Positions 9,984 through 48,274 of a stretch of DNA of 64,000 bases are shown in pieces. The notes below the pieces were generated by a model. The model was not told the DNA's origin. It made no database searches and saw only the letters and a program-made list of their open reading frames with translations. The stretch spans positions 37,572,001 to 37,636,000 of the forward strand of contig CM022670.1 of the NCBI GenBank assembly GCA_012295275.1. Direction: 5' to 3'. Origin of the DNA: Chrysomallon squamiferum (taxonomy: Eukaryota; Animalia; Mollusca). The position numbers were made by a program, and so were the translations under genes. Numbering within the stretch: the first letter of the stretch is position 1; every line of letters starts with the position of its first letter.

Positions 9984-10455
9984 GTAATAGAATTTAAAGC
10001 GATGTGTTTATATCTTTATATTATTTTTTTTTTTTACTTTTTGTTCTGAAAGAATATATAATACATGATGATTGAATTTTTAATTATAACATTATTAAAC
10101 ACCATGTAATATACAATACAGTAAAATATGTGATAAATGATAAACTGATAATTTTATCATAAAGTTCTGTCGAGGATAATTATATTTTTAGCATAAACTA
10201 TAATTATGTAACAACTGAATGATTTTTACGCTGGGCATTGCATATAATGATATATAAATAAATATAAAAAAAACAACAACAACAAAAAACCACAACAACC
10301 TTGCATGCCCGATACAATAACAACAACAACAAAACATTATGATTATGAAAAAAAAAAAAGAATTTGTATACATTCAAAAACTGTTGTTAAACAAAATATT
10401 TAATTATTTATTTAGTTATTATTTCTTTTCAGTTCTTTGTTGCACAGTCCTGATA

Positions 10456-13400
10456 ATGTCGAGAAGATCAAGTCGCCCTTCCTCTGCTGCCTCCCACAGT
10501 AGTCGGTCATCCAATGCAGATGGTGATTTTAAACTGGAATGCAAAGCAGCTTATCTTACTGTTTTCAATGACATCAGAGATGAAATTACCTCAAAAGATG
10601 ACCTCATTTTAGGTTTGTTTTCTGAAAAGAAAGTGGAACATTTTGATAAATTATATGTATGAATATATGAATTCAAAAAAAGATATACTGAGAAATAGAC
10701 ATGTGCAGAAATAAACCCTGATTGACAAAGTGAGATTGATATTATTGTATTTGTAATAACACATTTCAGAAGAAATATCCTCCCAGATGGGTTGATAAAT
10801 CAAAATTATAAATATTTGTAAAGATTCTGTACAGAATGTACAATGCAGACTTTTTTCTGACTTTCTGCTGGGCAAGTTTAATAAAGACAGAATACATTTA
10901 TTTCTAATATTTGTATTGCATATACATAAAATATATTGTTATATATATTCTGTAATACAAAAAAAGATTGGATTGAATCACTGAATTCCTTAATTCCTTG
11001 TTTGTCAGATTATCTCTTTATATATAATTTTTTCTTTCTTTTCTTGAACAGCTAATAAAAAGTTCATTAATTAATATAGTATTTTAAAATGATCTCAGAC
11101 ACTGTATTTAAACAAATGATCTTTCAGTTCCATTCAATTATTTCCAGTTCTTCAACAAACTGGTCGTAACCCTACTCGACGCACACTAGAGAAATACTGG
11201 AAAGATACAACAGGTATGTGATCTATAAAATAACTAGTTTATATCTTACTTTTGTATGCATTCATCATGCTTAATTTTTTTTTTTTTTTTTGCATATTTT
11301 TATTTCCAGAATGGTAGCACAATAGAAACATTCCCATGTATTAGAATAACATAAACACAGAATATTAACTCTTATTTTATAAATTCCATAGATAATTTTT
11401 GAAATATTGTACAATCATTTTACAAAATATATTAAATATCAGACAGATCCTAATTTACTAAGGAAAATCTTTATCTAACTAATATGTCAAATTGTTTAAA
11501 GTGCTGATTACAAACAAACTAACTTCCTTAAAAAAACATTTGAAATGATTTGACAATTAAATAGAAAGAGAAAGCAATATTTGATTTGTGTATTTCTTGG
11601 ATAGGGATGCCTGTGTGTCCAATATTTTCATTAATTTCACTTGCATATTAATTTTAATTTTATAGTTATAATTTTTATTTAAATACAGTGAGCCTTTAGA
11701 TAAGACAGTGTTGACATTTCTTTTTCAGAGTCATTATCTTTCAATGACTTTGTTGATATATGTCATCATGAGCCTGCTACAACTACAGATGATCTTATGA
11801 AAGCCTTCAGAAAAATTGATGTGAATGGTGATGGTTACTTGTCTGTGAATGAACTGGTTAATACTCTTAGTACAGTAAGTGGTGACACAGCACTCAAGTA
11901 TTCATATTAATCATGATTTGCATTAACTGTTACCTCATTTTTACTTCAGTTCATTGCATCTTGAACCAGTAGAGAAAAAAAAGAAAATGTATTAATCTTC
12001 TTTTTTTTTTAATTATTATTGTAAGGTTTTTTTTCTTTTTTAGGTTTTGTAAACTTATACAATTGTTACTTGAGATTGGCAATATTAAGTTAAAAAAAGA
12101 AACAAACTTTGAAAAGTCTTTCTATGAAATCCTTTCTTTCAGAAAGGAGAAAAGATGAGCCGTGATGAAGTAAAAGCTATTATTAGCGATGTGGATGAAA
12201 ATAAAGATGGTAAATTGGATTATCATGAGGTATGTAACCTGCAATGTCTGATTGATAAGAATGTTACAGAACAGTGTTTCATAACCTTGCTACTAGCTAC
12301 AGATCCACAACAGCTGCAGACTGTTGACTTAAAACTTAGAATTGATAAAACTCCATTATGTCAATTGGATATAACCATTATTATATACCTACAGACACAT
12401 TCATGGCATATTTATTCTTTTATAAATATCTATAGCACCAATTTTACTGAAGCAATTATCTTAAATATAAGATGTGTGTTTTATTTATTGTGATTTGAAA
12501 TAGCCTTTTCCAAATATATGTTCCAAGAGAATTTAAACATTTGTTCTAAACAGTAATTAACTATCCAAATTTTTTTTTTTTTTTTAATTTTGAACATGGA
12601 TTTTCCAAAAGATTAGTGATTATATTAAGAATTTTTTTTTTTTATAGCAATAACTTAATGTAAAATCATTCAGAACATTTTTAACCTGCATTCTCCATAT
12701 TTCTATTTTTTTTTTACACCTTTAGAATCCTTTATACGTTTATTAAATTATTTAATCTACTCTTTTCTAACTACTTAATAATAGTGGTATAGTTTTTAAA
12801 TTTTAGCTCTAAACACAGTCAAATTACTTTTCAAAATTATTTTAATATATCCATTTTCTTTGTATTCTGTTTCAAAAATAAAAAAACATAGTTAAATGGT
12901 GTTGGTTTTTTTCATTCAGCAGTCATTTCCCTACATCCAGGTATAGTTTTATCCTACAATCTGCATATATGTACAGTGTTGCATGCATTGAGCTTATATT
13001 TGTTTTATTCACACACTAAGATAGTTTTTGAATGATAGAGAATACATTGTTTTTTTTTGTTTGTTAACTGATGCTGTACAAATGATGTTTAACGACTCTT
13101 TAAGAGAATCACATTTTCTTTGGCATACACAATATTTTATTTATTTTTGATACAGTGTAATTTTCAATTTGTATAAGAAATTTGATCTTTGCTTTTAAAT
13201 CTCACTGTATGTGTTAATGTTTCAGATGGATTAGATTTCTAATTAAATTTCCATTATTTTCCATTAATAGTAATGTTACGAGATTTTAATGTATTATTCT
13301 TAACATATAAACATTTTTTCTTTTCCTTTTTATTGGAATTTTGGAAATCTGAAACCTTTCCAGTCCCAGGCATTTTGCATAGGCAATCTTCAACCTCTAA

Positions 13401-16400
13401 TAAATTTCACAGATTATATTTCTGAATATTCTTGATGAAATAATAAAAAAAAAAATACCAACATAGGCATTAATAAAATTATTTACTGAATATTTCTGTA
13501 GTTCTGTAACATGGTTATGAAGACGACAGAAGAGGCTAAGAAGATGGCACTGAAAGTGATGGAGAGAAAAGAGAGGAAGAAACAGAAAAGCAGACAGTCC
13601 ATATCCAGCAAAAAAGGTAAATCATACTATGTCACAGTAATCAGTGTTGGTTTAGACAAATGGGCAGTGTGAATGAAACTTCTTGTCTTGCATCCTTTGA
13701 ACAGACCTACATAAAACAGCTGCTGAAAATTTCATTATCACAAACACCTGTTATTTAACAAAAAAACCCAGTATTTCACATTATTGTTTGACATGTATTT
13801 GCTATTCTAAAAGATGATGGCTGGTGATTCAGAAGTAACTTACTTTGTTTAACTGTTTGAATGAAAATTTTGCTTGAGATTCACCAGTAAACCATACTAT
13901 TTAAATTTTAAATAGACCGTTAGTATTGTTTTGTCTTTAAGCATGCTTCTGATGTTATAGGCAAAAGGTTTCAGTGCATTATGATTTTATTTATGACCAG
14001 TTTCTGGTTATAATATTAAAAGGTGAAATAGGTCTATAAAGATAGTCTTGAACTTGTTATTTTATTATTTATTTACTTATTTATTTTTTGTTGTTGTTTT
14101 TGTTTTCATATGATGTAATTTTTTAACATTTAATTTAAAAAATATACATTTTAAGGTTTCAAGAATTTTTTCTTGTTAAAATTAATGGCTATAACAAATA
14201 AAACACTGTTCACTTTTATTGTTAGCACTGGTCTAGTCAGTAATGTTCTTTTTGTCATAATTCTGTGGTAATACTATTACTGATGTTAAGACTGTTTTAC
14301 GTTTTCCTTTGTCAGTGGTAAAAATATAAAGATATATATATATATTTTGCATTATGTTTTACCAATTATATCATTGCATCCCTGCCATTGCAGTATCACA
14401 TTTCATGTGTTGTTTGTTTGGAATTAATTTTATGAATCTATAGAATTACTTTATTTGGTATTCTATTTTTCTTTTTTTTCTGTAAGTGACTGAACTTTTT
14501 TCTGTTTTGAGTAATGTTTTGATTATGCATTTGGTACTTGTTTGACACTGCTGTTTGTATATTTGACTGAAGTGTGTTAAAGATGGCCCTGGTCTGGCAA
14601 ATTACAACAAAACATTACTAATTTATTTTACTTAAGCCCAGTGTATATGAAAATTTAGCCATTATGGTTTTCTGTCATGTAGTCATCATACAGATTTCAA
14701 CTTGAAGAAGATTTTTCAGTAGGTCAGAATATTTTTGCATGTGAGAGAGAAGTGTGTGTGTCTGTTGTATTTGATTTTGAACAATGCAGCTTTAGTTGTA
14801 TTTATCAGTTCAGAACCAGCAAACAACATTTTAAATATCCTCAAATGTTTTTATTAGATGAAACAGAAGTTTCTTCAGAGCAACAAGAAACTAAAGAGGA
14901 GAAAAGTAAGGTGTTCTTCTAACACTGGCTTCTGTGTGGCTTAAGTGATACAGCTTTCCTTTTGCTTTCCTTTATTACTTTTTAATAATTTTTTTCATTA
15001 CTTTTCTTTCTTAATGAAAAGCAAATTGTATTTTTGGGGTATTTTTTAAAGTAAATATCAAAACACTAATCATTTATAGTCACAGGTTTGCATATACCAA
15101 ATATTTAGAAATTGCATTAGGGTCAGTCTGTGTCAAATGACCCAATGGGTTAAACCCGACCATCTCAGATTTTTATGAAACTTGGTATACTTGTTGACTG
15201 GGATCCCACAGCACCAAATCAGTGGTGTTGGAGAGATGGCCCACCGAATTTTTAGATTTTTGGCACCAACCTTAGAACCCTCATATCTCAGGAACTACTG
15301 GGCCAATCTTCATAAAATTGGTATTGTTGAAAAGGCAATATGACAAGGATTCCATATTGGAGTACATTGACCTTTTGACCTTTGCTATGACCTTGAAATT
15401 GACCGTGTGGATCACGTGACCTTGAGAAGAAAAGTTTCCTGGGTGTAACATTTTTTGTTTAGTCACAATAACACCTTTTCAGCCATTAATATCTGATTAA
15501 CTAAAACCTGAATGGGCTAAAATCTCAAAATTCGGTGGGCCATATCTCCCACTCCAGTTTTTCTAATCTACTATTATTTTCATATAATAAACACATATCA
15601 CAATACTGTCCTCAATAGAAATATATCTGTTAAAAGAACACTAAAACACATTCATCTTAAAGGATATAGTTTATATTTGTTAAATGAAGACTAAAACACA
15701 CTAATTTTAAATGATATGGTTTATATCTGTTAAATGAATACTAAAACACACTAACATTAACAGATATTGTTTATATTTGTTAAATGAAGACTAAGACACA
15801 CTAATGTTAAAGGATATTGTTTATATTTGTTAAATAATGAAGACTAAAACACACTAATATTAAAGGCTATTGCGTTTAGTAATCATCTGTTGTAATTCTG
15901 AGCCATATTTTAAAAGATTTTTATCACAAAATATATTCAAGAATACTGGTTTAAAAATTAATTATGTAAAACAAAATTGTATTTTTTTCTAAAATGCATT
16001 CTAGTGCATAAAATAACAAATCAGACTATTAAGGCCCTAAGTTCAAATTTAATTATTATTTTTTTTATAATATTCACAAATTCATTGTTCAGCCAAAATA
16101 TATAACACACACACACACCCAATTTGTATCACAACTAGTCATAAATAATATTTCTTGTATTCAGTTAGAAATATTTATTAAAGGAAACAAAGTCATAGTT
16201 TTTAAAAATATTTATTAACTATAAAACTGTTGAATGGTAATGTGTGTATTTTTCTTTCATTTGCAGTTAGTTAACTGTAGTAATACAATAATGGATTTGA
16301 AGCATATGTTAAAATATTTTCATAGTATTCCCATTACAAAAAAAAAAAAAATATAAATAAAAAGCAATACATTAATATCACCATATAATTATCAGATAAG

Positions 16401-19400
16401 AGTGAAGATGTAACTTCATCAAGGACATCTGTACAATCCAAGAAAGTGAAAAGTAAGGTGTTCTTCTAACAGAAGTTTTTGTGTGGCTTAAATGACATAT
16501 CACAGCATAATTTATATTTCAGTTTAGTTTTTTGCATTTTTAAATACTGAACAGAGCTTCTTCTAAGCAAGATGCAAATTTAAATTACAGACAAACAAAA
16601 TTAGATCTACAATGTTTTATATTTTCCAAAATAATTAATGAATTCACATCCCAATATTCAGTAAGAAATTCCAAGTAATATTTTATTAATGACAATTAAA
16701 AGTTAACATTTTTTTAAAAGTGTTTATTGATATTACAACAGTTAAAAGGTAATGGTTAGTTATCTGAAGTATATCATTTACAGAGACTGAAATAAAATGT
16801 CTTGTAAATCAAAAATGCAGTATAATATTCTGTTACATATTAGAAAAATATAAATAAAGACAATGCTGTTAATATAACTGTGTAATTATTAGATGAGGCA
16901 GAAGATGTAACTTCATCAAGGACTTCTGTCCAATCCAAGAAAGTGAAAAGTAAGGTGTTCTTCTAACACTGGCTTTTGTGTGGCTTAAATGACACAGCTG
17001 CTATTGTATTATTTAAAAAAAAAAATTATGTCATTAATAGCTACAAATCTGTTTAATATTGATTTCATAAGAAATGAATATCTAGATGAGCATTTCCACT
17101 TCAAATTATAAAAGCTAATAATAAAAAAATATATATATATATAATGATAAGAATAACAGTACTGGCAAAAGAAATAATTTTATATATTTTAAAATATTTT
17201 GATATTATCGTAATTCAGATTCCAGTATTCCTAATATCAGTTGAAGATTTTTCAGCATGTAAAAAATTTGTTAATAATTAAATATAATTATTAGATGAAG
17301 GAGAAGATGTAACTTCATCAAGGACATCTGTTCAATCCAAGAAACTAAAAAGTAAGGTGTTCTTCTAACACAAGTTTCCTGTATTAAATTGCTATAGATA
17401 TGGAATTATTTTGTAATGAAATTTAAAAAAAAAAAAAAAAATTCTTAAATTTGAGTGATGTTTTTTAATTAAATAGGCTATCCTTTGTAGGAAATTGTCA
17501 AAGTAAATTTTAAAAAATAATTTTATAGCCAACAGAATCCATAACAAAATTTTGAAATCCATATTAATGTTAGTTTTAAGAGAAAATGGTTCATTATTAA
17601 GATTTTTATATTAATTTTAAATGACAATAATTTAAATCTATGAAAAAAGAAAAGAAGATACTTTAATCAATATATGTAATTATTAGATGAGGAAGAAGAT
17701 GTTACATCATCAAGGACCTCTGTACAATCTAAGAAACTGAAAAGTAAGGTGTTCTTCTAACACAAGCTTTCTGTGCCTTAAATAGTTTTGGACAAAAAGC
17801 TGATTTCTGTTCTTCAACTATTTATGTTTATAATGATATGCATCACAAGAAAGTTTTAACTTTTAAAAGCCAAAATGCTTTTTAAAAAAAATGTTAAATA
17901 AATAAAAATAAATGAACTTGGTATCTAACTGTTCACATTTGAATCATAATATCAAATGAAGATTTTTCATTCTCTAAAAAGTATCCTTATAATTATTAGA
18001 TGAGGGAGAAGATGTAAATTCATCAAGGACTTCTGTCCAATCCAAGAAACTGAAAAGTAAGGTGTTCTTCTAACACTGGCTTACGTGTGGCTTAAATAAC
18101 ATACCACAACATAATTTATACTTCAGTTTAGATTATTTTGGTGTTTATTAAACTGATAGTTGCCTATTGAAAGCAAGTTACACATTTTAATTTAGTGAAG
18201 TAACTTGGTTATTTTTGGTTTGTTTCTCGTTTAATGTAATTTAATTCACAACCCTGTATTACAAACCAAACAAATATTTTATTTATGAAAAATAAAAGTT
18301 ATTTAAAAAAAATTTTTAAAGAGTTTATTAATATTAAAACAGTTGAAAGGTAGTATATGTAATTTTGGTATCAGCTTTTGTTTCATTTCCAGTTAGGTTT
18401 TCTCTTGTATATCATACACAAAGACTTTGAAATAAAATAAATTATAAATAAAAAGTCAATTATAATAAGTATCCTTTTGCTAAACTATAATAAAATAAAT
18501 AAAAGGCAATGCATTAAATATAATGTTTTCTATAATAAAAGAAAGTGTAAAGTAGTATCTAATTCTGGCTTCTGTGTGGCTAATATTTCTTCTTATTATT
18601 ATTATAATTAAAGAAATGAAGATCTTGATATAGATTTAGCTTAAAATTGTGTATAATTATTAGATGAAGGAGAAGATGTAACTTCATCAAGGACTTCTGT
18701 CCAATCCAAGAAAGTGAAAAGTAAGGTGTTCTTCTAACACTGGCTTTTGTGTGGCTTAAATGACACAGCTGCTATTTTATTATTTAAAAAAAAAAAAAAA
18801 AATATGTCATTAGTAGCTACAAATCTGTTTAATATTGATTTCATAAGAAATGAAAATCTAGAGAGCATTTCCACTTCAAATTGTAAAAGCTAATAAAAAA
18901 AAAAAAATATAAATATATATATATAATGATAATAATAACAGTACTGGAAAAAGAAATCATTTTATATATTTTAAAATATTTTGATATTATCATAATTCAG
19001 TTTCCAGTATTCCTAATATTAGTTGAAGATTTTTCAGCATGTAAAAAATTTGCTAATAATTAAATATAATTATTAGATGAAGGAGAAGATGTAACTTCAT
19101 CAAGGACATCTGTCCAATCCAAGAAACTGAAAAGTAAGGTGTTCTTCTAACACAAGTTTGCTGTATTAAACAGCTATAGACATGGAAGTTTTATTTTTAT
19201 TTATTTATTTATTTTAATTTAGATGTTATTTTGGCATTAAAAAGGCTTGCCTTCATAATAAATAAGTTAAAGATAAAAAAAAGTTTTACAGACTTCAAAA
19301 TCCATTATTAATTTTTATTTTACATGAAAGTGGTCCATCATTCAGATTATTCCTGTATTAATATTTAATGAAAATGCTTTAAATCAATTATTACATACAA

Positions 19401-22400
19401 TTATCAGGTGAGAGACTCAGAAATAAAATAACTTAAAAAAATATAAATACAAGACAATGCAGTTAATATAATTATTAGATGAAGGAGAAGATGTAACTTC
19501 ATCAAGGTCCTCTGTACAATCCAAGAAACTGAAAAGTAAGGTGTTCTTCTAACCCAAGCTTCTTGTGTTTTAAAAATCTTTCGTTCTTCAGTCATTTAAG
19601 TTTTTTTTTTTTTACTTTTTATATTTACAAAGCCTTAAAAAGAAATAATAATAATAACTATCTTTTTTTTAACAGATTGTTATGACAGCTAAGAAAATTT
19701 ATTTTAAATATATAAGAAACCATCAGCTGATTTGTAACTTCATTACTAATATTAGTTTTAGGTGATTTTCATCTGTAATTCAAATTCCTACTTTATATTA
19801 ATTGAAGATTTTTCAGTCTGTAAAAATTTAATATAAATTTTATTAGATGAGGAAGAAGATGTAACTTCATCAAGGACATCTGTCCAATCCAAGAAACTGA
19901 AAAGTACGGTGTTCTTCTAACACAAGTTTCCTGTATTAAATAGCTATATACATGGCTTGCCTTCATAATAAATAAGTTAAAGATAAAAAAAAAAAGTTTT
20001 ACAGACTTCAAAATCCATTATTAATTTTTATTTTACATGAAAGTGGTCCATTATTCAGATTATTCCTGTATTAATATTTAATGAAAATGCTTTAAATGTA
20101 TGGGGAAAAATAAAAATCAGTTATTACATACAATTATCAGGTGAGAGACTCAGAAATAAAATAACTTGTAAATCAAAAATTCATTATACTGTTCTGTTAC
20201 ATATTAGAAAAATATAAATACAAGACAATGCAGTTAATATAATTATTAGATGAAGGAGAAGATGTAACTTCATCAAGGTCATCTGTACAATCCAAGAAAG
20301 TGAAAAGTAAGGTGTTCTTCTAACCCAAGCTTCTTGTGTTTTAAAAATCGTTCGTTCTTCAGTCATTTAAGTTTTTTTTTTTTTTACTTTTTATATTTAT
20401 AAAGCCTTAAAAAGAAATAATAATAATAACTATCTTTTTTAACAGATTGTTATGATAGCTAAGAAAATTTATTTTAAATACATAAGAAACCATCAGCTGA
20501 TTTGTAACTTCATTACTAATATTAGTTTTAGGTGATTTTCATCTGTAATTCAAATTCCTACTTTATATTAATTGAAGATTTTTCAATCTGTAAAAAATTA
20601 TATTAGATGAGGGAGAAGATGTAACTTCATCAAGGATGTCTGTACAATCCAAGAAACTGAAAAGTAAGGTGTTCTTCTAACACAAGTTTCCTGTATTAAA
20701 TAGCTATATAGACATGGAAGTTTTATTTTTATTTATTTATTTATTTATTTTAATTTAGAGGTTATTTTGGTATTAAATAGGCCTGCCTTCATAATAAATA
20801 AGTTAAAGATAAAACAAAATAGTTTTACGGACTTCAAAATCCATTATTAATTTTAATTTTACATGAAAATGGTCCATTATTCAGATTATTCCTATATTAT
20901 TTGATGAAAATGCTTTAAATGTATGGGAAAAAAGGTATATCAATTATTATATACAATTATCAGGTAAAAGTCTCAGAAATAAAATAACTTGTAAATCAAA
21001 AATTCGTTATACTGTTATGTTACATATTAGAAAAATATAAATAAAAGACAATGCAGTTAATATAACTGTATAATTATTAGATGAGGGAGAAGATGTAACT
21101 TCATCAAGGTCATCTGTCCAATCCAAGAAAGTGAAAAGGAACACTGGCTTTTGTGTGGTTTAAATAACACAGCTACAATTTTATTATTTAAAAAAAAAAA
21201 TTAAAGTAATTAGTAGCTACAAATCTGTTTAATAACGATTTCATAAGAAATGTAAATCTTGATGTGCATTTCAACTCCAAATTGTAAAAGCTAATCAGAG
21301 CAAGAATTAATAATTTGTAGTGGGAAAAGATATGATTTTAAACATTTCTGCATGTAAAAAATTTGTTTATAATTACATGTAATTATTAGGTGAAGGAGAA
21401 GATGTAAATTCTTCAAGGACCTCTTTGCAGTCCAAGAAAATGAAAAGTAAGGTGTTCTTCTAACACAAGCTTCCCATGGCTTAAATAACTTTAGACTTGA
21501 AGCTGATTTGCATTCTTCAAGCATTTAAGTTTATAATGATATGTATCATAAGAAAGTTAGTTTTTTCTTTCTTTATTTTAATAATAACAATAATAAATAA
21601 ATAAATAAAAATCTTTTAACAAATTATGAAAGCAAAAAAAAAAAATCATTTTACTGACAAAAGAAATCTTACGATTTTTAGCTTCATTGCTAATATTAGT
21701 TCCAGTCAATTTTCTGTTCAGTCCAAGAAACTAAAAAGTAAGGTGGTGTTCTAACATAAATTTCCTGTATTAAATAGCTTTAGAAATGAAATTATTATTA
21801 TTAATATTTTTTTTTTGTAATACAAAAACTTGCCTTTATAAGAAATTGTTAAAGCTAAAAAATAATTTTACAGAAAATGTAATTGTAAGAAGATTTTGAA
21901 TACCATTATTAATATTGGTTTTAAGTGAGAATGGTCCATTAAAAAAAATCTCTTTATTAATATTAACTGACGATATAAAAATTCATTATGATTTTTGTTT
22001 TTCTAGTTAAAACGCTTTAAATATTTTTTCACCTTTTCATAAGCAGCTATTAAAGGTTTTTATTTAATTTTTTTAATTTTTGTTTTATAGATAAATTTTA
22101 TAGACAGATTTCTAACTGCATTATCAGTAGTATTAGTTTTTTAATCGGATCTCTATATTAATATAACAACTGAAGATTTTTTCAACATGAGTAAAAAAAA
22201 ATATTCTCTAAAGTATATGTAATTATTAGATGCATAGAATTCAAGAGATCTTAAACAAAAAATATTCAGACACAGGTTTGTGGTGTGGCTTAAATAGCTT
22301 TAGGAAACACAGTTCTAGACTTCTTTTCAAGAGGCATTTAAATAGTTTGTTTATATACAGTAATTGTTTTTGCTTCATAGAATCCATTCTAGTATTTCTA

Positions 22401-22543
22401 ACCAACAGTTACTAAATGAACCATAAAAAGAACAATATGATCAATATAAATCAATCATTGTTTGTATCGATGTATCTAAATAAATGAGTGAGTGAAATTG
22501 TGGGGTGGTGCCACTTATGTCCACACCAAAGAGGAAACATGTT

Positions 22544-22594
<51 letters not shown>

Positions 22595-25500
22595 AGTGTT
22601 TATATAGAAATTCAGTTGCTGATTTAATTGCTACTTACCATATACAGCAGTTTATTTTGTTTAACAGGATCCAAGGAAAACAGAAAACTGATATTTTCAT
22701 GGAATTGACATAACCTGATTTCCTCAAAAACGTTTGCTTTGTGATGCTGTTTTCTCTACACATTTATTTTTTTTTAAATGTTTTTATTAGATGAGGACGA
22801 GGATGTAGGTTCTTCACGAACGTCTTTACAGGCGGAATCTGTAAACCAGAAAAGTAAGGTGTTCTTCTAACACAGGCTTTTGTGTTGGCTTCACTGCCCT
22901 CCCTGAAACAGCCTTTATCTTCCTTGCTCTTTTTGAAACATTATTTGAAATTATTATATTGTCCTATGGAGTGGTGTGGATTTGAGCTTGTATCTATAAT
23001 CTTTTTTTTTTTTTTTTTTTTCTTTACTTATCAATCATCATCAACATCATCATCATAATAAGATTTTTGGTGTTTAGAATAGAAATCCTATCATAGTTAA
23101 ATTCCCACCCCCCACCCCCGAGATGAGCATGTTTGATGAATTATCAGCTGTATGAATATTTTTTCTATAAACAGGTGAATTAGTAATAAGATTTTCTGTA
23201 GTTCAGATTAGAAATTCCACCATAGTTAAATTTCCCAAAATTAACTTGTTTGATAAAATATCGGCTTTTTATGAGTATTGAGAATTTTTTATAGAAAGCA
23301 TGGAACCATTTTCATTCTTTTTAAACTGGATTACTCAGTTAATATTATCTAATAAATATTAGGTTCTAGATAATTTTACATGGTAAGTAAAAGACATTTG
23401 TGTTAAATTGTTAAGAATATGGTAAATGTCTAGCTTGTATCACAGTAGTCAGAGTACTAGCCACCAGCCACTTTTGATGGTCACATACTAAGAAAGTCAC
23501 AAAGCTTGAAATATCTTTAGCCTATGCTTAAATCGTCATTAAAACTGAATCAAGTAATATTTATAAATGACAAATAGAATGTTCTAATAATTAACAATGT
23601 TTTTTTTAAAATGATTTTTAAAAATGAAAGATTCCACTTATTAATCTGAGAATATAATTTATTAGATGAAGACGATATAAATGCTTCAAGAACCTCCTTA
23701 CAGTCAGGCTCTGTATACATGAGGAGTAAGCTTTGTTGTTTTTTAATTATTATTTTCATTGCTTAATTTTAGCTTCACTGACCAAGATGTATAGCTTTAT
23801 GATAAACCTTTTTGTTTGTTTAGCTAAAATAAATGAAAAATTAATTTAATTGTTTTTTAATTTTTTAATTTTTATATTGTATATTATTTTTTTTTTCATT
23901 TTTTTTTTCTTCAGAATATTTAATTTTTCTTTGTTTTATATAACAAATGCAAATTTTGTGGCTTCACTAACCAAGGTTGAAAACTATTCAGTTTTGGGTT
24001 TTATGGTTTTGTATCATTTTGTTACTTGGCTGTTGCTTTTATTTTTTTATTTTACTTAATTATACTCTTTTCTTTTCCTTTCTTTTTTTTTTTTTTGTCT
24101 GATTGCATATCCTAATATTTGGTGGCTTTGTGTGAAAAACAGTTAATTATATAGGCAGAATATGTTAGGCTTTTTTCATGTGTGTTTGTTTGAATTTCAA
24201 TGCTGGCATATGAATTAGAATTACTAGTTCAGAAATTTGTCAGGTTGTTTAATCTTTGTTTTATTATTATTATTTCATTTGTTTGTTTTATTTATTTTGA
24301 TATATTATACTTGGTGTGTTATAAAAGTTATGTAATACACACATACATATATACATACAGTTAAAAAGTACATATCATTGATAATATTCCTAGAAGAAGA
24401 TGTTTGCTAAAGTTATGAGAAGTATCTGATGGCTAAAAATGTTATATGAATTTAAATTTGTCATTAATAATAGTTTGGTTGGTAGTTCAGCACATGCTCA
24501 TACACATACACACAAATGCACATAAATGTTTACATCAACATTTTTCATTGCCTATACACACTGATTGTCATGGATGTGTATCTTAGACAGAGAGATAGTG
24601 TGTGTGTGTGTGTGTGTGTGATGAATATATGCAGATGTACATGAACATATATGTTCATAACACAAGTATAATTTAGTGCAAAACACTTCAAATGTAATAC
24701 TTCAAATGATATGAAAGTGTAGGTTGTTTTCACATTCTATTTTAAATATTTTATACTTCCTTTGTATGAAAAATTTATTTCAATACAAAATAAATAATTT
24801 CTATTAAATCACTTGATAGTTTTACTATCTTTGAAATAAGCTCAAGGAAAATCTATTATTTTGTTTCAGTTGCATAATAAATGTCACCATTTTTAGTTTT
24901 ATCAATATATTTTAGTTTCCACTCACATATTAGTCTTGAATGTCTTCTGATGCATGTATCTGTATTACTGTAAAGATTTTTTTTTTTTTTTTTTTTTTTT
25001 CAATTCAAAAATCTTTATCTTGTTCACATTTAAGTATCACTACACACTGGTTTTGATTTTCAGAGAGGCAAGGTTCAAGGTCTTCACTTATCAGCATTGG
25101 TATTTTTATTTTTGTTTATTTGTTGCTTCACAGTTTGCTGTTGTACAAGAATTTTCACCAGCACAATAGATTTCTGCTTCAGAGCTAGACATGTTCTGTT
25201 TTTTTGTTAGTTCATCCACTCTAGAATGTTCTGGTTGTTGCTAAATTAATTTTATTTGCATTTTTTGAATCTCATCAAACAGAAGCACAGAAAGTTTTAC
25301 CAAATGTTAAATGTGACTTTGCAGATAAACTGATTTGACATTAGATTCAGATATAATGATACAGTTTATTATAGTGGTAAATAGATAAATAAGTATAAAT
25401 ATACAAAAAATATACATACATACATACATACATATTTTTATTTATTCTTTCTCTATGTTTCAAGTGTTTGTGTGCAGATTTGAATGAAAGAGAAAGAATA

Positions 25501-27139: not shown

Positions 27140-30108
27140 AGATATATTTTTCTGTAATAAAGTGTTAATGGGAGATAACTTAGAAAAAAGATGTGAAGAC
27201 TGAAATGAACCCTTGCATCTGTGTCTCAAAGATGCACTTGTTTAATTTCGATTTGTTTTAAACAGATGATTTACCAAAGCCTTCCCCAAGAAGTAACAAA
27301 GAGAGAGGGAGACAAGCAATCAGATCTCATCTGCCTGAACCAAGTAATCTGCAGGTTTGTATATAACCTGATATTAGTTTTATATTTAATGGTTTTCACT
27401 AGAAGAGTTCCCAGCTATGTTTTTTCTCTGCGATTTTTAAAGTTGCTTCTGTTTGTTATTTTATTTTATTTATTTATCTTTAAAATAATTCACTTTTTCT
27501 GTTTGTTTCTTTGTTTTTATGTAAACATGTTGCTGTTGTTGTTACTTACTTACACACTTATGTGCTTATAAATCCATACTTACTTTCTTTTATTAAATGA
27601 GTGAATAAGCACCACACTAGCACCAAAATAGCAAAAGAAAATTGTTGACCCCATAACACATTTAGCAATATTAATTTGAAATAAAATAAAATTAAATTAA
27701 ATTAAATTAAAATAAAATAAAATAAACTTTCAGTAAAAATATGGAGATTTTATTTTAATTCAGAAATGGACTCACAATGCTAGTAAAGGCTGTTTCTACT
27801 TGGAAGAAGGAAGCATTATGAGTCACCAGTACACACTGGAGCTTTCAGAGAGTACAAGCGTTTGGATGACAATCGAACCTGTGAGGATTGGAGAAGGAGG
27901 TAAATAAATACAGGATAATAACACACAACACGCTGTGTAACATGTAGATATCGTTCTAAGTGGACATAAATCAATTTTGCAGTTTTCTGTTCCAACCAGT
28001 GCTCCACAATCAGTTTATCAAAGACTGCAATGTATGTTTTTGTCCATGTTACAACCCACTAAAATAATAACACAAATTATTTTCTATTTTGATCTGTCTC
28101 TAGGTGTTGATAAAGATGGAAATCCCATAGATACAATCCTGTTTGTTCTTCGAGATAAACCTCGCTCCCAGAGCCAGAGGGTGGTTACTTTCACAGAGAT
28201 GAGAGATGCACATGGGGTAGGTACACCTTTGTGAATTACACGTGTATATTGCATTCTTCATTGCTAGTATTGTTATTCTTCAGCTTAAAAGAACTGAAAC
28301 GAATCACTTAAGAGATCTGTATTAGAGTATGGTTGTCAGGCTTGAAGTGAATGTAAAAAGTAAAGAAAAATAGTGAGACGGATTTTAAGCAAGATAACAA
28401 TCATATAAAACAGATTTCATGATGGTTGAATTATTACTGAATTATTCACATAAATATATACATTTTATATTAAAGCCATTATTTGAATGTCGAAATTGAA
28501 AGCAATGGTGGTATAATTCTCTGTTTGAATCTCAAATCTGCATTTTAATAAATTGGCTTCTTCGTTAACCCATACTGTTAAAGTTTACTGTAATTACAGC
28601 TTATGCAAAAAATCTGTGCTGTTAATAAAATTAATACTTAGTTCTTCTTAAGCTAATGATCAGAAAATTACTGGTGTAATATCTGCAGTAGCTTGCAACA
28701 CAAATATTTTGACTGTTCATAGCTTATCTTTTGTTACACAGAAATTTGGAGTTCGGTGTGACTTGGATGCAGGGAAGTACAAACTGATTCCATTCTCAAC
28801 TGGATGTCGACTGCGACCGAGCAGACATCATTCGAAACAGGATGCAAAGCTGGTAGATAAAGATAAACACAACAAGTTCATTCTCACTAAGGCTTTCAGG
28901 TAAGCTGGAAGTTTTTAATCGAGGAATGTTTAATGATAACGAAGGAACAGTCCAAATATGGTTTTCTGCAGCCAAGCGATCACCTAATCTGTCTGTTGTA
29001 AGACAGCAGCCTTTGTTTTTGACAAAGTAATACAATAAAATAGAAGTCCATGATTTTATTTTGTGTTCACAAGTATAAAAACAAATTCCTGACTCACTGA
29101 GAACATGAGTAACTTCACATTTCTGTCAGGTTTTCTTAACATTTCTGTTTATGAAATGACATTACAAACAATAGGGAATAATGTTTGTTAATTTAAAAAA
29201 AAAAATAAGATGACACATAGAAACTATTAATAACTAGAAAAACTTAAAAATAATAAGAATAATAATAATAATAAAAAGACACATAGTTTTAAAACTGAGC
29301 CAGGTTTTCTACATGGTATTTTTTTATTTATTTATTTATTTATTTTCTTTTATACAAAACTGTGTGTTGAGAGTGAGTGTATGTGCATGCGAGTGTGTGT
29401 CTGTGTGTGAATGCACATTATTTTCTTTCTGTCTTTCTTACTATTTTTTCACTAACAATATTTATATTTTTTTTTTTTTTTTTAAATTATTTATTTATGT
29501 TTTTGTTTTAATATTTACTGACACCTTCATACTTTTAACACTATTCAGACGGGCACTGGAGGAAATATTTGAGATGGTTGACTTGGATGGAAACGGACGG
29601 TTAAGCCGAGAGGAGTTTAGTCTGTACACGTGGAGAACTAGTGGAGAGGGGGTAGCCGATGAAGAATGGGAAGTGGTTGAAAGTAAGACTCATAAATCTG
29701 TGTGTGTGTCCACCAAACCAGAATACTCTTCCATTTTCCAGATTATTTGCTTGTGCTTTTAGCATTAACATCATTTTCCTCAACATTTACAACAGCCAGT
29801 ATGTGTGTGTGTGTGTGTACATGCAAGTGTGTGTCTGTGTGTGCCTATAACTAGTCTGGGTGCATGTGGTTGTGCCTATGCTTATATTCTGTTTTGGTGT
29901 TATTTCCAGCGAGCTGTGATCTGGTAAATGGTGAGATCACAAAGGAAGGTTTTATTCACCTCACAGAAATGGAGGCTCAGGAGACTGAGGGAGAAGAAAA
30001 AGAGTTGTGGATCACTTTAGAGAACATGGGCTACAACAAATCTCTTGATTTGTGCGAGGTAATTTGTTCAGCAGTAATCCACTTCAATTTTTTTTCTTAA
30101 CTTTTTTT

Positions 30109-30142
<34 letters not shown>

Positions 30143-32132
30143 TTTTTTTATTATTACTATTAAAAAAAAGTATTATTTTTTATTTATTCTTGTTGTTTTG
30201 GGGTTTTTGGGGTGGAGGTGGAAATTTCAGACAGAAATGTAAAAGGTATTCTTGAAGATATGATTACAGATACATGACTGATTTGTTATTTTTATATTTC
30301 TATTTAAAGAATGATTTTTAAAAATTTATTTTTGGATCAATTTTTTCGGATTTTCATTAATGTGCACACTGACATTTTTGTTTGGTTTTGTCAAGAATGA
30401 TAATGCCATTTTTTTAAATTATTGTTATTTCCTGTATTTAGGCTTGTCCCTTTCAATTAGATGTATATACTGAGGAATGTGACGATGCAAAACTGTTGGT
30501 GTCAACTCTTGAACCAACTGATGCTCATGTAGAAGACGCAGTGTGTGAAACGGTTCTAGCAAAGGTAATCGTTATGTTTCATAGATTTTTTAATCCTTTC
30601 TGTTTACTTGTAATCCTAAACAAAAGAAATCTAATAATTATTACTGTAACTGTAAAACACACAGACACCGACCAGGTCCAGAATTTTAAGATGCATGATT
30701 TTAAAAATATTTTAAAAAATTGTTTTCTCACATGAAGTCTAATTTGTATATTTTTTTACATGTATTTTGCCATATATATATATATATTCAACAAATACTG
30801 TAGTTATTATTGTTGCTTGTCTCTAGGGTGACAGTAAAAAGGTCAAGGGAAATTCAGATCTCACACTATACAGCTATATAGGAGATGCCAGAGCAAGCCT
30901 GGTTCTCAAGAACAATGTAAGTTTATCTGTGGACATGTGATATAAACTCAGAGTACAAACTAGACGTAAAGCAATATAGTGAGAAGAACACTCGAAATCT
31001 CAATCTTTTCTAAGTCACATCAGATGTATCAAAGATGTAAAGTTATAATTAAAAATATATAATTCGCATATTTTAAATTTTACAGATCGGGTATCATGTA
31101 TTCTTCAGAACAGTTAGGTTTATTCTCCATGTCCCAAAATTACATCCCATGTTTCAGATTTGTAACATTTAAAAATTGTTAAAAATTGCTCAAACTTGAG
31201 CACAAATTTTGGATTAATGTTAAAACAGAAACATCTTTCTTAGTATGTTGCAATTTTTTCACTAAGTCTCACATCCAGATAAGTGTACGAATGTATGATC
31301 ACTGTCTCTGCTGAAACTGATTGAGCTTAAACAAATTTATATTTGACAACACAGAGTAGATTTTTATCAACAGTCCTGGTTCTGCTGTTTATATAGTTTG
31401 TAAAATAATCTGAAATGCTCTCAGAACATTGCCTCCAACAGGTAATATTTTAACCTCTGTGTTTCAGTCATCTTCACAACTCATCTGTAGAACTGGACTG
31501 CAGCAACAGTCGTAACTGTGTGAGTAACCAGAGCAAGCTTAAACATACAGTATCAGTTCCAGCCCATGCCACAGTTGTAAGTACCAAAAAATAGATCATG
31601 CCCTTTTTTATTTTTTTTTATTTTTTTTTAGTTGACCAACTGAAACAAAAATACAAACTAGACAGTCCCTCTGATCTTCAGAATCTTAGGATGTCAAAAA
31701 AAAAAAAAAACAAAAAAACATCACTAGGGTGTCTGATATTGTAAGAAAATTTTATTTAAGCATAAGGAAAACATACAAGAGTGTTGCATTGCATCAGCTC
31801 TGTTTTAATAATATAACAGTGGATATATATCTGTGGTTAAAATCTGACACCGTTTTTTTGCCAATTTTGATAGCCATCTAATTGAATTACAACAGTAATT
31901 ATTTCCATGGGTCTGAATACATTTTTAGAAGTTTGTTTATATTTTCTGTGATATTTAAAGTTTAGAATTATTATTTCAGTGTATGATACATGTATGTATG
32001 CAAGTTATTCGGATTTCATACAGCTCCTTTTGATTTGATGAATGTTTTGTTTTGCAGGTTGGTCTTCATCTCATTCCAGCTGATGAGAGATCAGAGTGGT
32101 TAGTTCAGTGTACAGAGAGGATTGTTAAATAG
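10456..32132 (+). CDS. EFCAB7: EF-hand calcium-binding domain-containing protein 7 (ciliary EvC-complex tether in vertebrates)
   Basis: Exons 10456-10612 (ECKAAYLTVF), 11148-11213 (LQQTGRNPTRRTLEKYW), 11729-11874 (EF loop DVNGDGYLSVNE), 12143-12229 (KGEKMSRDEV...DENKDGKLDYHE), 13502-13616, [array 14858-23725; 25064-25099], 27266-27354 (EPSNLQ), 27764-27899 (KWTHNASKGCFYLEEGSIMSHQY), 28104-28216, 28742-28899 (DLDAGKYKLIPFSTGCRL), 29549-29682 (IFEMVDLDGNGRLSREEF), 29910-30058, 30442-30564, 30827-30916, 31468-31576 (apparent 1-nt frameshift), 32058-32132 (stop). Motifs match my recollection of vertebrate EFCAB7 along the whole length. Confidence 0.93.
13340..13399. mobile_element. Terminal fragment of a Tigger4/MER46-like DNA transposon
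   Basis: aaatctgaaacctttccagtcccaggcattttgcataggcaatcttcaacctcta resembles the end of the 61538-61890 element. Confidence 0.5.
15117..15560. mobile_element. Non-autonomous DNA-element remnant with internal inverted repeat and TGACCTT-rich core
   Basis: ggagagatggcccaccgaatttt (~15230-15252) pairs with aaaattcggtgggccatatctcc (~15527-15549); repeated tgacctt words; GC above the intron background. Confidence 0.6.
15623..15872. repeat. Minisatellite, ~5 copies of a 50-bp unit
   Basis: atatttgttaaatgaagactaaaacacactaat.ttaaa.gatat.gttt repeated head to tail. Confidence 0.85.
21081..21137 (+). pseudogene. Array pseudo-exon: body intact, donor removed by a short deletion
   Basis: 57-nt body after taattattag is followed by ggaacactggc instead of gtaaggtgttcttctaacactggc. 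Confidence 0.8.
25064..25099 (+). CDS. EFCAB7: Candidate 36-nt phase 1-1 EFCAB7 exon, (K)RQGSRSSLISI
   Basis: Strong acceptor ggttttgattttcag, donor gtattt, open and in phase with its neighbours; GSRSSLIS resembles the array's SSRTSLQS. Confidence 0.6.
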
Positions 32133-37100: not shown

Positions 37101-38362
37101 TTAATTCAGTAAAATATGTAATATTATGAGCTGCAAATAATTTATATCTGTGAAATTTTTCTTATTAAAATGTCCTTTTCTCATCTTAGTGTAAAAGGAA
37201 GACATTACAGAAAAATGTAACAAATATTTACCTCATCTACTAACATGACAACCGTTTCTCTTCGGCTTCCAGTATTACTGAATCTTTTTCCAAGTAGTTC
37301 TGCTGCATGGTCTGGTGTGGCTTTTTGTCCTGTTAAAGCCTGTGTCAATGAAAACAGTTGAAGATTTTGATATATTTTTGTTTCATAAGAAACGGAAAAG
37401 AAACGGAACAGCATTAAATCAGTAATATTCAACTTAATGACACTTATTAAGTACCATCGTTTAATATTATAATAATTTTTAATTAGATTAATACAATTAT
37501 GACATAAGCCTTTAATAAACCAGTAGGCTGGATTGGGAAATAGTTTAGTGGGAACTGTTCAGTTGATCTCTAATCTTTCACACCTTTGTCTATAAAAGCA
37601 CTCTTTTATTTTAAAGCCATCTTCAAGTGAAAATGTAAATGATCAAGTCTGCAATGCTTCCATTAACAACTTGTAACGATTTGAACAGAGATAAAGTAAA
37701 TATAACAACTAACTGAACAAACTGTATTTTCAAAGATGTATAACCAAGTTTTTATTTTTTTTAGTTTTATTTTAAAGTTCAAAAATAACCATAACAGTGT
37801 TTTTACTAAAATGTGGATTCATAGTATTTACCAGTTACAAAATTAGTAACAACTAAATTTTGTTTTAACCCAAAATTAAGTTTTACTATTAAGTTTTGCA
37901 AAATTATTATATGTGTGTGTGTGTGTGTGTGACACTTTTTAAAGCATGTATCAACAAACACTCTCAATATTGTTCAGAAAATTTGTCATCAATAAAATCT
38001 AGTAAGAAAACATTTAAAAACACAAGACGGTACATTTCAGTTTAACAGTTAGTATTAAGTTAGACACCTGTAGAATCTGTGTATATGCTTGTCTTGGTTC
38101 TGTCAGCTTCATCCCATTAATTTCAATGAACTTGAACTTGGCAATGTCTCCTTGTTCAACACCATTCAACAATGCTCTTGTCACCTCCTTAACTGTGGCA
38201 GTCTTGCCAGTTCCAGGAACACCAGATATGTACATACACCTGAAATTAATAACACAATAACACACATGTATATGTATACACACACACATATACAAATATA
38301 TCTGTATCTCCATATCTATATATAATTAAATATTTCTATCTACAAACACAGATAGACAGATG

Positions 38363-38454
<92 letters not shown>

Positions 38455-48149: not shown

Positions 48150-48245
48150 ACTTCCTATTGGCTGAAGTTATAATCGCGGAATTCCGGTAAAACTCGTTCA
48201 CTATTTAATGTAGTGGCGTTAGGTTTGCGCATGTATTTTAGTATC
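48150..48245 (+). promoter_or_regulatory. Candidate core promoter of the KY-like gene
   Basis: Reverse CCAAT (ATTGG 48157-48161), TATA-like TATTTAA 48202-48208, Inr-like TTAGT ~48238-48242 about 30 nt downstream, CpG-rich context. Confidence 0.45.
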
Positions 48246-48274
48246 TCCGCAGAGAAGTTGTTAATTCAAATACG

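Follow-up and report, generated by a model that had tools for sequence, protein, structure and literature searches.

A conserved intronic box beside the donor sites of a cassette-exon array in a gastropod EFCAB7-like gene

The EFCAB7-like gene and its exon array

The window, i.e., the whole 64-kb stretch of DNA that was analysed, carries on its + strand an EFCAB7 orthologue (EFCAB7-like) from a gastropod, a relative of Gigantopelta aegis, and in this gene an array of small exons is placed after the first EF-hand pair and ahead of the C-terminal domains. The constitutive exon 5 (13500..13616), the last before the array, was located by RNA contig joints (12227 to 13500 and 13614 to 14856, cut +2) and by tblastn to G. 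aegis isoform X1. It ends in G, so that a G|AT codon (Asp) is formed where it meets the first array exon, E1. The array unit is a 57-nt phase-1 exon coding ~19 residues, (N/D)EGEDVTSSRTSVQSKKLK; the array introns are A/T-rich and 256-1490 nt in length, with a repeat insertion in one of them.

Wherever an array exon still has acceptor, donor and open frame, as 14 of them do, the 18-mer GTAAGGTGTTCTTCTAAC follows it directly on the + strand. These intact exons are all phase-1 and comprise E1 (48 nt, 14858-14905, with its box at 14906-14923; 14858..14923 in all), twelve exons of 57 nt (16396 to 21446) and the divergent E17 (63 nt). Exon and box together occupy 16396..16470 in E2, 16893..16967 in E3 (with the class-1 continuation ACTGGCTTTTGTGTGGCTTAAAT), 17295..17369 in E4, 17687..17761 in E5, 18000..18074 in E6, 18664..18738 in E7, 19077..19151 in E8, 19479..19553 in E9, 19847..19921 in E10, 20250..20324 in E11, 20607..20681 in E12, 21390..21464 in E14, whose first bases are GT, and 22791..22871 in E17. 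The box is exact in 13 of them, including E17 as claimed in the first-pass annotation, and begins with GTACGG (1 mismatch) in E10. The C at 19907 in the E10 box is A in the sole run-X2 RNA contig covering that base. The exons starting at 14858 (E1) and 16893 (E3) had been called very different; they are indeed divergent (34/57 in the alignment), but the E1 exon is a recognisable nucleotide-level homologue with indels and not an unrelated sequence.

It had also been stated that only the last exon is without the box. The last array-type exon, E18 (23666..23725, + strand, 60 nt), identified by tblastn as orthologous to DKEEEDIQSSRTSLQSGSGHLK, an exon of G. aegis, does have the donor GTAAGC without an intact box, the homologous stretch being TGTTTTTTAAT. 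However, it is not the sole exception. E13x (21081..21137, + strand) is an open 57-nt exon from which a small deletion took the donor together with the box (AAAAGGAACACTGGC...), and + strand relics at about 18538..18583 and about 22230..22299 carry decayed boxes. The former has no usable exon, its box having decayed to GTAGTATCTAATT while CTGGCTTCTGTGTGGCT after it is retained; the latter retains its acceptor, and the continuation GGTTTGTGGTGTGGCTTAAAT is recognisable although exon and box have decayed. A further + strand relic (21713..21755) combines an acceptor-less 3' exon fragment with a box that has 2 mismatches (GTAAGGTGGTGTTCTAAC; 18-mer match at 21738). Downstream of the array lies a 36-nt phase-1 cassette exon, RQGSRSSLISI (25064..25099, + strand), which has no box and is optional in G. 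aegis isoforms.

Cassette use of the array exons

The RNA evidence consists of assembled contigs from one study with four runs (X1-X4), from which inclusion levels are not derivable; contig coverage leaves out E17, E18 and the exons past 22040. Exon 5 was joined to E1 in three of the four runs (X1, X3 and X4), this joint being absent from the main run-X2 contig, and one run-X2 contig joined the donor of E5 to the acceptor of E11 (17743 to 20250, GT..AG), by which five exons were skipped. No joint between adjacent array exons was found among the listed RNA contig joints. Several low-depth contigs were unspliced across E2, E9, E10 and E11 and could possibly represent pre-mRNA or DNA carry-over. 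The EFCAB7 isoforms of G. aegis contain 0, 1 or 4 array-type exons in series: the E18 orthologue is present in isoforms X1-X3, and array-type exons occur solely in isoforms X8/X9, where three of them and the last one are arranged serially. The isoforms of Littorina span 605 to 790 aa. The array exons are thus cassettes of which the number used varies. They are not mutually exclusive, because of the E5 to E11 joint and the serial exons of G. aegis isoforms X8/X9, and since every array exon length (48, 57, 60 or 63 nt) is divisible by 3, multiple inclusion carries no penalty.

These observations bear on a steric model put forward in the first-pass annotation, in which CTAAC at +14..+18 is a real branch point for the next array exon and lies too near the donor, so that neighbouring exons would be unjoinable and mutually exclusive. 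Exons 2/3 of alpha-tropomyosin are reportedly spliced in this manner by a distant branch point. The same has been described for exons 4a/4b of OGDH, and PMC7969005 gives a steric threshold of ~50 nt, which the branch-like A at +17 falls under. The array resembles such systems in this respect, in its duplicated exons and in belonging to a Ca2+-binding protein gene; the box-less last exon, and a sole array-array joint that skips five exons with none between neighbours among the listed joints, would also fit. However, in the steric systems a single short intron is free of AG and rich in pyrimidine over a long distance, all the way from the donor-proximal branch point to the acceptor that follows, and new AGs lying further than about 8-12 nt beyond the branch point are used (PMC7969005). 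In contrast, the array introns measure 256-1490 nt, are A/T-rich and in one case interrupted by a repeat. From +19 up to the following acceptor they contain 8-69 AG dinucleotides, the acceptors are preceded by an AG-free zone of just 13-58 nt (105 nt at E17), and a YTNAY motif of its own is found 10-35 nt upstream of 13/13 acceptors following a box. The steric model is therefore unsupported, and as array exons are joined to one another here, four are strung together in G. aegis and all lengths are multiples of 3, it is very unlikely to account for the box.

Conservation of the donor box

When the window was searched for the 18-mer with up to 3 mismatches, 15 matches were obtained, all on the + strand and from 14906 to 22871: 13 exact, one with 1 mismatch at 19904 (GTACGG) and one with 2 mismatches at 21738 (the 5'-truncated exon relic). 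The chance expectation was 0.05 matches, and 15 were reached in 0/100 shuffles. The box was absent at 16 other donor regions of the gene (five RNA-joint exon ends, E18, the 25064-25099 exon and nine predicted ends). Over the entire 64 kb, the + strand has 14 occurrences of GT[AG]AG with CTAAC in the following 3-25 nt, all of them inside the array. A metagenome scan for the box gave 10 matches, all unrelated.

The core of the box is formed by the twelve bases TGTTCTTCTAAC at +7..+18, which are invariable in the 14 usable copies. Among the 12 copies of the same length, 19/57 exon columns vary (10/19 third codon positions), as do 1/6 columns at +1..+6 and 9/12 at +19..+30, the last against 0/12 at +7..+18 (p = 1.7e-4). 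With E1 and E17 added, 28/45 ungapped exon columns are variable versus 0/12 in the core (Fisher one-sided p = 7e-5), which bears out the earlier claim that the box is better conserved than the exons. The introns have also diverged: past +18 their identity across unit lineages is only 0.35-0.70, and in nine or more lineages the introns are close to saturation, yet each retains the box at 18/18.

It seems improbable that the box is functionless by itself and owes its identity to recent duplication or gene conversion among the copies. The array did grow via segmental duplication, as can be seen in intron identities of 0.93 for E3/E7, 0.94 for E9/E11 and 0.76-0.80 for E8/E10/E12, but only these young pairs or groups are so similar. 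The intron starts after E1 and E3 are identical at 47/50 positions, as previously noted; besides 18/18 in the box this includes 29/32 at +19..+50, possibly a tract of gene conversion. Against this explanation stand the at least nine old lineages and the contrast with the adjoining 12 nt, and the block is flanked on both sides by varying, recombining sites, 5-8 nt upstream (a Val/Leu/Met codon) and 1-5 nt downstream, in mixed combinations. Moreover, the box decays where the exon is dead, being damaged in 4/4 dead copies and intact in none of the four. The invariant core, the diverged exons and introns and the damaged boxes of dead copies together point to an RNA-level signal under purifying selection and not to recency. 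Short-tract gene conversion in combination with selection on the adjacent coding sequence could contribute to the homogeneity of the box.

Selection on a protein tail is the least probable explanation of all. If the donor were unused, the frame would run Ser-Lys-Val-Phe-Phe-stop, so that EFCAB7 would be cut short and end in a conserved tail, which would agree with the in-frame TAA at +15..+17 (ORF 14683-14922), with the end of conservation at +18 and with the unspliced RNA contigs across several array donors. However, none of the six synonymous positions in this would-be tail differs among the 14 copies, versus 10/19 variable third positions in the exons, no such protein occurs among the relatives' isoforms examined, and the unspliced contigs have the low depth and doubtful origin mentioned above.

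A role in RNA pairing, whether as a donor-masking hairpin, as one arm of a stem formed with the purine-rich first bases of the box's own exon (loop-out) or as a Dscam-type selector, is likewise improbable. The small hairpin proposed earlier, with GUGUU and AACAC pairable, is not conserved: z <= -2 was reached in one of the five box-bearing copies folded (the class-1 extended hairpin, -9.2 kcal/mol, z = -2.0), whereas the other four gave z from -0.67 to +0.85, and the stem positions +19 and +20 vary without compensation. RNAalifold pairs exon GGAGAAG with box UUCUUCU in most copies, but with a covariation term of 0.02, and on the exon side one purine is exchanged for another opposite U, a change that pairs trivially. 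Complementarity of 12/14 to the box exists at two + strand sites (15629-15642 and 30979-30992); however, the best-complement duplex was equalled in 12/30 dinucleotide shuffles, and loci at <= -16 kcal/mol numbered 3 versus a shuffle mean of 1.7. The Dscam/srp docking-selector clusters are similar in that every exon of the tandem array was duplicated along with a conserved intronic element, but their defining outcome is one exon per mRNA (PMC6071210). The array differs in having no docking site above chance and identical "selectors", and in allowing more than one array exon per mRNA.

Downstream of the core, conservation is looser. The continuation class GGCTTYTGTGTGGCTTAA reported previously is present, and older copies have a second box, YTTYYGTGTGGCTTAAAT, at +25..+45. 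A UGUGUG-like stretch follows CUAAC within about 15 nt in the older copies E1, E2, E3, E6, E7 and E17; UGUGUG is lost in 7/14 usable copies and CUAAC in none.

Possible action of the box in splicing

Since it is a selectively retained signal that accompanies the array donors, the box is best read as a repeated splicing element, and it probably serves to control splicing in some way. The "repeated splicing switch" of the first-pass annotation thus holds for a repeated, selectively retained signal, not for a steric choice of one exon. A narrower reading, adopted tentatively and at somewhat less than even confidence, is that the box is a repressive, protein-bound, donor-proximal regulator of repeated cassette exons. 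The maintained signal at +7..+18 is predicted to damp the use of its own exon's 5' splice site, which is so near that the occupant of this putative protein-binding site might compete with or modulate U1 snRNP. Runs of pyrimidine with UCUU are the motif of PTB-type proteins, and the box run with UCUU is a candidate site for them, although it is short. The branch-site-like UCUAAC is of the type recognised by SF1 and also by STAR proteins, among them QKI/ASD-2; it departs, however, from the QKI core ACUAAY at the first base. Acting as a repressor site or decoy branch site, the box may cause most array copies to be skipped by default, and a single factor could then dial the repeat number in the EFCAB7 linker. 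If the box tunes splicing, it would set how many repeats reach the protein instead of forcing a one-exon choice.

The direction of action, silencer over enhancer, can be inferred weakly. We lean to repression because E18 has no box and isoforms X1-X3 of G. aegis include its orthologue, whereas array-type exons are confined to X8/X9, and because perfect retention in 14 redundant copies would suit a site that is harmful if lost singly better than an enhancer. Box-bearing E1, on the other hand, was included in 3/4 RNA runs, which runs counter to repression and agrees with a less probable alternative, namely that the box is a donor-proximal intronic splicing enhancer, where a STAR-type or U-rich-binding protein at +7..+18 would aid U1 snRNP and switch the exons on in particular tissues. 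Such help could plausibly be needed by 57-nt exons whose acceptors (E2-E14) are poor in pyrimidine (0.45-0.55 of the last 20 nt), and loss of the box from dead exons would also fit. However, 13 near-redundant copies would lead one to expect weak selection per copy, yet no change is found at +7..+18 in usable copies; E18 has no box, yet its G. aegis orthologue is included in isoforms X1-X3; and the long U runs that make up TIA-type sites are absent. In favour of an enhancer, UACUAAY in the downstream intron goes with exon inclusion in muscle (Sugnet 2006, as quoted in PMC13004596); the same quoted study links it with tissue-specific inclusion or skipping.

Among the known systems nearest to the preferred, repressive reading, QKI/SF1 competition and In100 of caspase-2 serve as precedents for action from this position. 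A parallel with intron 1A of C. elegans unc-60 had been drawn, and the binding of CUAAC repeats and UGUGUG by ASD-2 and SUP-12 is correct; in unc-60, however, these elements are located close to a 3' splice site, which they repress (PMC3469465). The array copies with a UGUGUG-like stretch share the order of the two motifs, but their CUAAC is single and at the 5' splice site, with UGUGUG dispensable and CUAAC constant. SF1 and QKI compete for ACUAAC branch sites (PMC13004596), an example of a branch-point-like sequence serving as a regulatory protein site instead of a branch point, for which the array box is only a candidate. The high-affinity site described there is bipartite (ACUAAY with UAAY, or two ACUAAC) and the documented repression acts from upstream of the regulated exon, whereas the array box lies downstream and has one UCUAAC with no UAAY half-site in the 20 nt after it, only UUAAAU.

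In100 is a decoy 3' splice site with PTB sites downstream of caspase-2 exon 9, which blocks the 5' splice site of that exon (PMC2082412). In100 and the array box both combine, in the downstream intron, branch-site-like with U/C-rich PTB-type sequence, but In100 exists in one copy of ~100 nt, in which the pyrimidine tract and the CAG look authentic. The array box has a 12-nt core abutting the donor, 14 repeats and a putative function, and the stretch following it is only weakly pyrimidine-rich and not the same in all copy classes. In100 is also said to sit further from its donor. In the array, the first AG past +25 is found at +39..+69, ~22-52 nt after the branch-like A.

Organization of the EFCAB7-like gene and its exon array

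An EFCAB7-like gene is encoded on the plus strand of the window. Its 5' exons (10432-10610, 11146-11210, 11726-11874, 12143-12227 and 13500-13616; coordinates adjusted for cut offsets and checked against the genomic sequence) are joined in RNA contigs from four runs of one study, and tblastn with isoform X1 of Gigantopelta aegis placed the rest of the exons between 25064 and 32129. In a collection of 5.8 billion proteins, the nearest proteins were isoforms from G. aegis, annotated as 'EF-hand calcium-binding domain-containing protein 7-like' and 79-80% identical across two exons, followed by proteins of Littorina, Elysia and Batillaria; queries with exon 1 and exon 28742-28900 against this collection returned only relatives and not the protein of C. 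squamiferum itself. EF-hand pairs were recognized by Pfam in the G. aegis protein. None of the 18 entries listed in literature searches on the gene in molluscs and its splicing named EFCAB7, which is not proof of absence.

Between exon 5 (13500-13616) and the exon at 25064 sits a tandem array of phase-1 exons on the plus strand, comprising E1 (14858-14905, 48 nt), thirteen exons of 57 nt each from 16396 to 21446, E17 (22791-22853, 63 nt) and E18 (23666-23725, 60 nt), with three relic copies interspersed. The 57-nt exons encode xEGEDVTSSRTSVQSKKLK, and since all array exon lengths are multiples of three, any subset of them preserves the frame. The 36-nt phase-1 exon at 25064-25099, which encodes RQGSRSSLISI and which G. 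aegis isoforms may include or omit, has the motif S-R/K-x-S-L-x-S in common with the array exons. The same motif occurs in the proteins of Littorina, Elysia and Batillaria, and the array therefore multiplies an old short linear motif.

Conservation of the box behind the array exons

Fourteen array exons are usable in the sense that acceptor, open frame and donor are all preserved, and each is followed by a conserved block starting at the donor (the box, +1 to +18, with its core at +7 to +18 and CTAAC at +14 to +18). With up to three mismatches allowed, GTAAGGTGTTCTTCTAAC had 15 matches, all on the plus strand and inside the array, where 0.05 would be expected by chance. Fourteen of them adjoin the usable exons, 13 being exact and one carrying GTACGG, although the deviating C at 19907 is an A in the sole contig (run X2) that covers the site; the fifteenth, with two mismatches, lies behind an exon relic without its 5' half. 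The box was absent from the other donor regions of the gene that were inspected, and across the window as a whole, the combination of GT[AG]AG with CTAAC 3-25 nt behind it has 14 plus-strand occurrences, every one inside the array, and a single one on the opposite strand. A metagenome scan for the 18-mer gave ten loci in prokaryote-like coding DNA, none with exon context.

The view of the first-pass annotation that the box is more conserved than the exons was borne out, beyond what duplication age would explain. Among the twelve copies of the same length, 19 of 57 exon columns vary (third codon positions 10/19, first and second positions 9/38), and the variable intron columns number 1/6 at +1 to +6, 0/12 at +7 to +18 and 9/12 at +19 to +30. 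Including E1 and E17, variation was seen in 28 of the 45 exon columns free of gaps and in none of the 12 box columns (p = 7e-5, one-sided Fisher test); the comparison of the box with the next 12 intron bases gave p = 1.7e-4. Past +18, intron similarity between unit lineages is merely 0.35-0.70, and young pairs are limited to E3/E7 (0.93), E9/E11 (0.94) and E8/E10/E12 (0.76-0.80 intron identity), so that the 18 bases have stayed unchanged in at least nine old lineages. The variable sites flanking the box, namely a Val/Leu/Met codon a few bases before it and ACTGG, ACAAG, CCAAG or AGAAG just after it, occur in mixed combinations, which speaks against one recent conversion tract. The box is damaged in all four dead copies (the three relics and exon 21081-21137), but in three of them donor loss is itself part of being dead and is not independent of the damage; the sole independent case is the 5'-truncated relic 21713-21755, with two box changes. 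Judged from these alignments, the box is a real, sharply bounded conserved intronic element.

Two details reported earlier required correction. It had been stated that only the last exon lacks the box; however, the open exon 21081-21137 has lost its donor and box through a small deletion, and E18 is thus not the sole box-less copy. Exon 14858 (E1), described as very different, is a recognizable nucleotide homologue with indels (34/57 aligned identity). The identity of 47/50 between the intron starts after exons 14858 and 16893 was reproduced, and the class continuing with GGCTTYTGTGTGGCTTAA exists as noted. A second, looser box follows in the older copies (E1, E2, E3, E6, E7, E17 and the three relics), which continue with ...YTGGCTTYTGTGTGGCTTAAAT. 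Its TTAAA part is present in 13 of the 14 usable copies, while TGTGTG is missing from the younger classes. E1 and E3 have 29 of 32 bases in common in this stretch, and further into the introns the similarity is at background level (37/62).

Usage of the array exons and the steric branch-point model

The RNA contigs were examined over 10200-22040, a region ending before E17, E18 and all downstream exons, and being assembled contigs of one study they inform on presence and not on levels. The joint from exon 5 to E1 is found in contigs of runs X1, X3 and X4. The main contig of X2 (2374 nt, depth 16) extends to where exon 5 ends and has another 1497 nt after that point, with no joint listed within 10200-22040, which suggests, but does not show, that E1-E14 are skipped. 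A joint with GT..AG ends in one X2 contig of depth 3 connects the E5 donor at 17743 with E11, whose acceptor lies at 20250; several private bases identify E5 there, and its partner could be any exon starting with ATGAAGG (E4, E7, E8, E9 or E11), the neighbour E6 being excluded. Several low-depth contigs are unspliced through E2, E9, E10 and E11. As non-quantitative evidence, these contigs point to infrequent inclusion of most array exons, E1 still being included in three of the four runs.

Two local features of the RNA data were also observed. At 15080-15560, in the E1-E2 intron, contig depth is 74-559 compared with at most 17 elsewhere in the examined region, with many loose ends; the stretch probably belongs to a dispersed repeat, or to a fragment of a transposon, with expression from many loci. 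At 19340-20052, one X2 contig maps to 19867-20052 and then back by 713 to 19340-19527, and the same contig has the A at 19907. The backward jump could be caused by a different order or number of units in that individual, or by an assembly chimera of near-identical units.

The box had been interpreted in the first-pass annotation as a repeated splicing switch that fits a steric branch-point model. Steric mutual exclusion would put exactly one exon of the cluster into each mRNA, which is contradicted by the E5-E11 joint and by the isoforms of G. aegis, in which X4-X7 have no array-type exon, X1-X3 have the E18 orthologue alone, and X8 and X9 have three array-type exons of 22 residues and the E18 orthologue in series, i.e., four in total. 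The Asn at each junction of X8 and X9 is exactly the residue that an A|AT junction, as in the exons of the window, would produce. In Littorina, cassettes in this region distinguish isoforms of 605-790 residues. In the contigs over 10200-22040, direct joining of one array exon to its neighbour was neither observed nor excluded; the E5-E11 joint and the isoforms of both relatives show cassette use rather than mutual exclusion, and the array exons are therefore cassettes in variable number.

The intron sequences are likewise not in concordance with the steric model. Donor-proximal exclusion systems combine a branch point less than ~50 nt from the donor with a long AG-free, pyrimidine-rich zone up to the next acceptor, and AGs more than ~8-12 nt past the branch point become acceptors (PMC7969005). 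UCUAAC, a candidate branch-point motif whose A falls at +17, occurs in 14/14 usable copies. The array introns are 256-1490 nt long, one of them containing the repeat of very high RNA depth, and from +19 to the next acceptor 8-69 AG dinucleotides intervene; in all 14 copies the first AG past +25 is at +39 to +69. The AG-free zones preceding the acceptors are short (13-58 nt; 105 nt for E17), and the pyrimidine content of the last 20 nt before the acceptors is 0.45-0.55 (E2-E14). Moreover, all 13 acceptors following a box have their own YTNAY with the A 10-35 nt upstream, and TTAAT or CTAAT lies at 12-20 nt in eight of them. Because of the intervening AGs, the short AG-free zones and the separate YTNAY motifs, the prerequisites of the model are missing, and the steric-switch interpretation does not hold. 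Duplicated exons with a donor-proximal CTAAC are by themselves no indication of steric mutual exclusion, and it is necessary to check the AG-free zone and the mRNA forms.

Possible action of the box and comparison with known systems

The box is best explained as a probable cis-acting splicing signal tied to the donor of each array exon. The identical box behind 14 exons resembles a selector-like sequence beside each variable exon, in its repetition alone and not in pairing. The small GUGUU/AACAC hairpin proposed beside the donor is extended and stable solely in class-1 copies (-9.2 kcal/mol, z = -2.0); z was -0.67 to +0.85 in the four other box-bearing copies folded, and +19 and +20 vary without compensation. 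RNAalifold paired the purine-rich exon start with UUCUUCU, with a covariation term of 0.02 and with the changes being purine swaps opposite U. The donor hairpin and the exon-looping stem were dropped on account of inconsistent stability and absent covariation. Two plus-strand sites (15629-15642 and 30979-30992) are 12/14 complementary to the box. A duplex scan with shuffles for a docking site common to all boxes found the best complements at chance level, 12 of 30 shuffles matching the best energy, and the complement at 15629-15642 was consequently dropped as a lead; it lies in the first of five units of a 50-nt tandem repeat (15622-15872). An Rfam search of the window returned no families. 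Read-through of each array donor (14906-22871) would give Ser-Lys-Val-Phe-Phe-stop (SKVFF), with an in-frame TAA at +15 to +17 that coincides with the end of conservation; all synonymous positions of this tail are invariant, and an RNA signal therefore fits better than a peptide. U12-type signals and extended U1 pairing were dropped as well, the donor being GTAAGG and the box agreeing with the U12 branch consensus only in UAAC.

The box combines a UCUU-containing pyrimidine run with a branch-site-like UCUAAC, and any protein or U2-type complex bound at +7 to +18 would take up room that U1 snRNP requires. A repressive action is favoured in this analysis because, of the array exons, relatives include the orthologue of E18, which has no box, because most box-bearing exons seem rarely spliced in, and because a site that is harmful to lose would be expected to stay intact across numerous redundant copies. 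The main rival is an enhancer role. Precedents exist for such a signal: UACUAAY in downstream introns is associated with tissue-specific inclusion or skipping, and QKI competes with SF1 on ACUAAC (PMC13004596). The STAR element recognized by QKI or ASD-2 has the core ACUAAY, or CUAAC repeats for ASD-2; CUAAC is present in the box, within a single UCUAAC that has U instead of A before it, and there are no repeats. A second site (a UAAY half-site or second core) within ~20 nt is also expected (PMC13004596), but no UAAY is found there in the array, with just UUAAAU at ~18-20 nt downstream in 13 of 14 copies. In a further precedent, CUAAC and UGUGUG are bound by ASD-2 and SUP-12, which act at a 3' splice site (PMC3469465); the array box differs in its position at the donor. 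Another precedent is In100, a decoy 3' splice site with PTB sites through which use of the caspase-2 exon 9 donor is blocked (PMC2082412). An In100-type silencer would have a branch site, a pyrimidine tract and an AG, placed downstream of the exon it regulates, along with PTB-type U/C repeats. In the array the branch-like A is at +17, UCUU is part of the box and the first AG past +25 comes at +39 to +69 (14/14); the tract between the branch-like A and the AG is weak and not conserved between classes.

The box would best be placed among donor-proximal intronic splicing regulators, as a new case in which the element has been multiplied together with an array of cassette exons. A more specific proposal, which seems rather unlikely, is that it is a donor-abutting decoy branch site copied with each exon, by which one SF1- or STAR-type protein sets the number of 19-residue modules in the EFCAB7 linker; a spliceosomal signal placed where catalysis is impossible would then act as a rheostat for the number of identical, Ser/Lys-rich modules. 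As this is a gene of a non-model gastropod, the practical reach is limited. Paralogous exon arrays provide an internal measure of constraint: a 12-nt intronic block that is stricter than adjacent coding bases over at least nine old lineages would pin a splicing signal to exact nucleotides without cross-species data. If worked out, the action of the box would show how an animal sets the number of repeated short modules within a linker rather than picking one variant, and would also test whether a branch-site look-alike against the donor acts as a decoy.

Other features were noted in the window. A (TG)23 microsatellite occupies 22546-22592 in the intron upstream of E17, and numerous further di- and trinucleotide runs are present throughout. 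Exons of a Cdc6/ORC1-like AAA+ ATPase (Pfam AAA, AAA_lid_10 and Cdc6-ORC-like lid) lie on the minus strand at 35118-42609; this gene has a long Ser/Lys-rich exon and is convergent with the EFCAB7-like gene. On the plus strand, a 234-residue open frame at 48242-48946 contains a KY-like immunoglobulin-like domain (Pfam PF23265, E = 3e-20).
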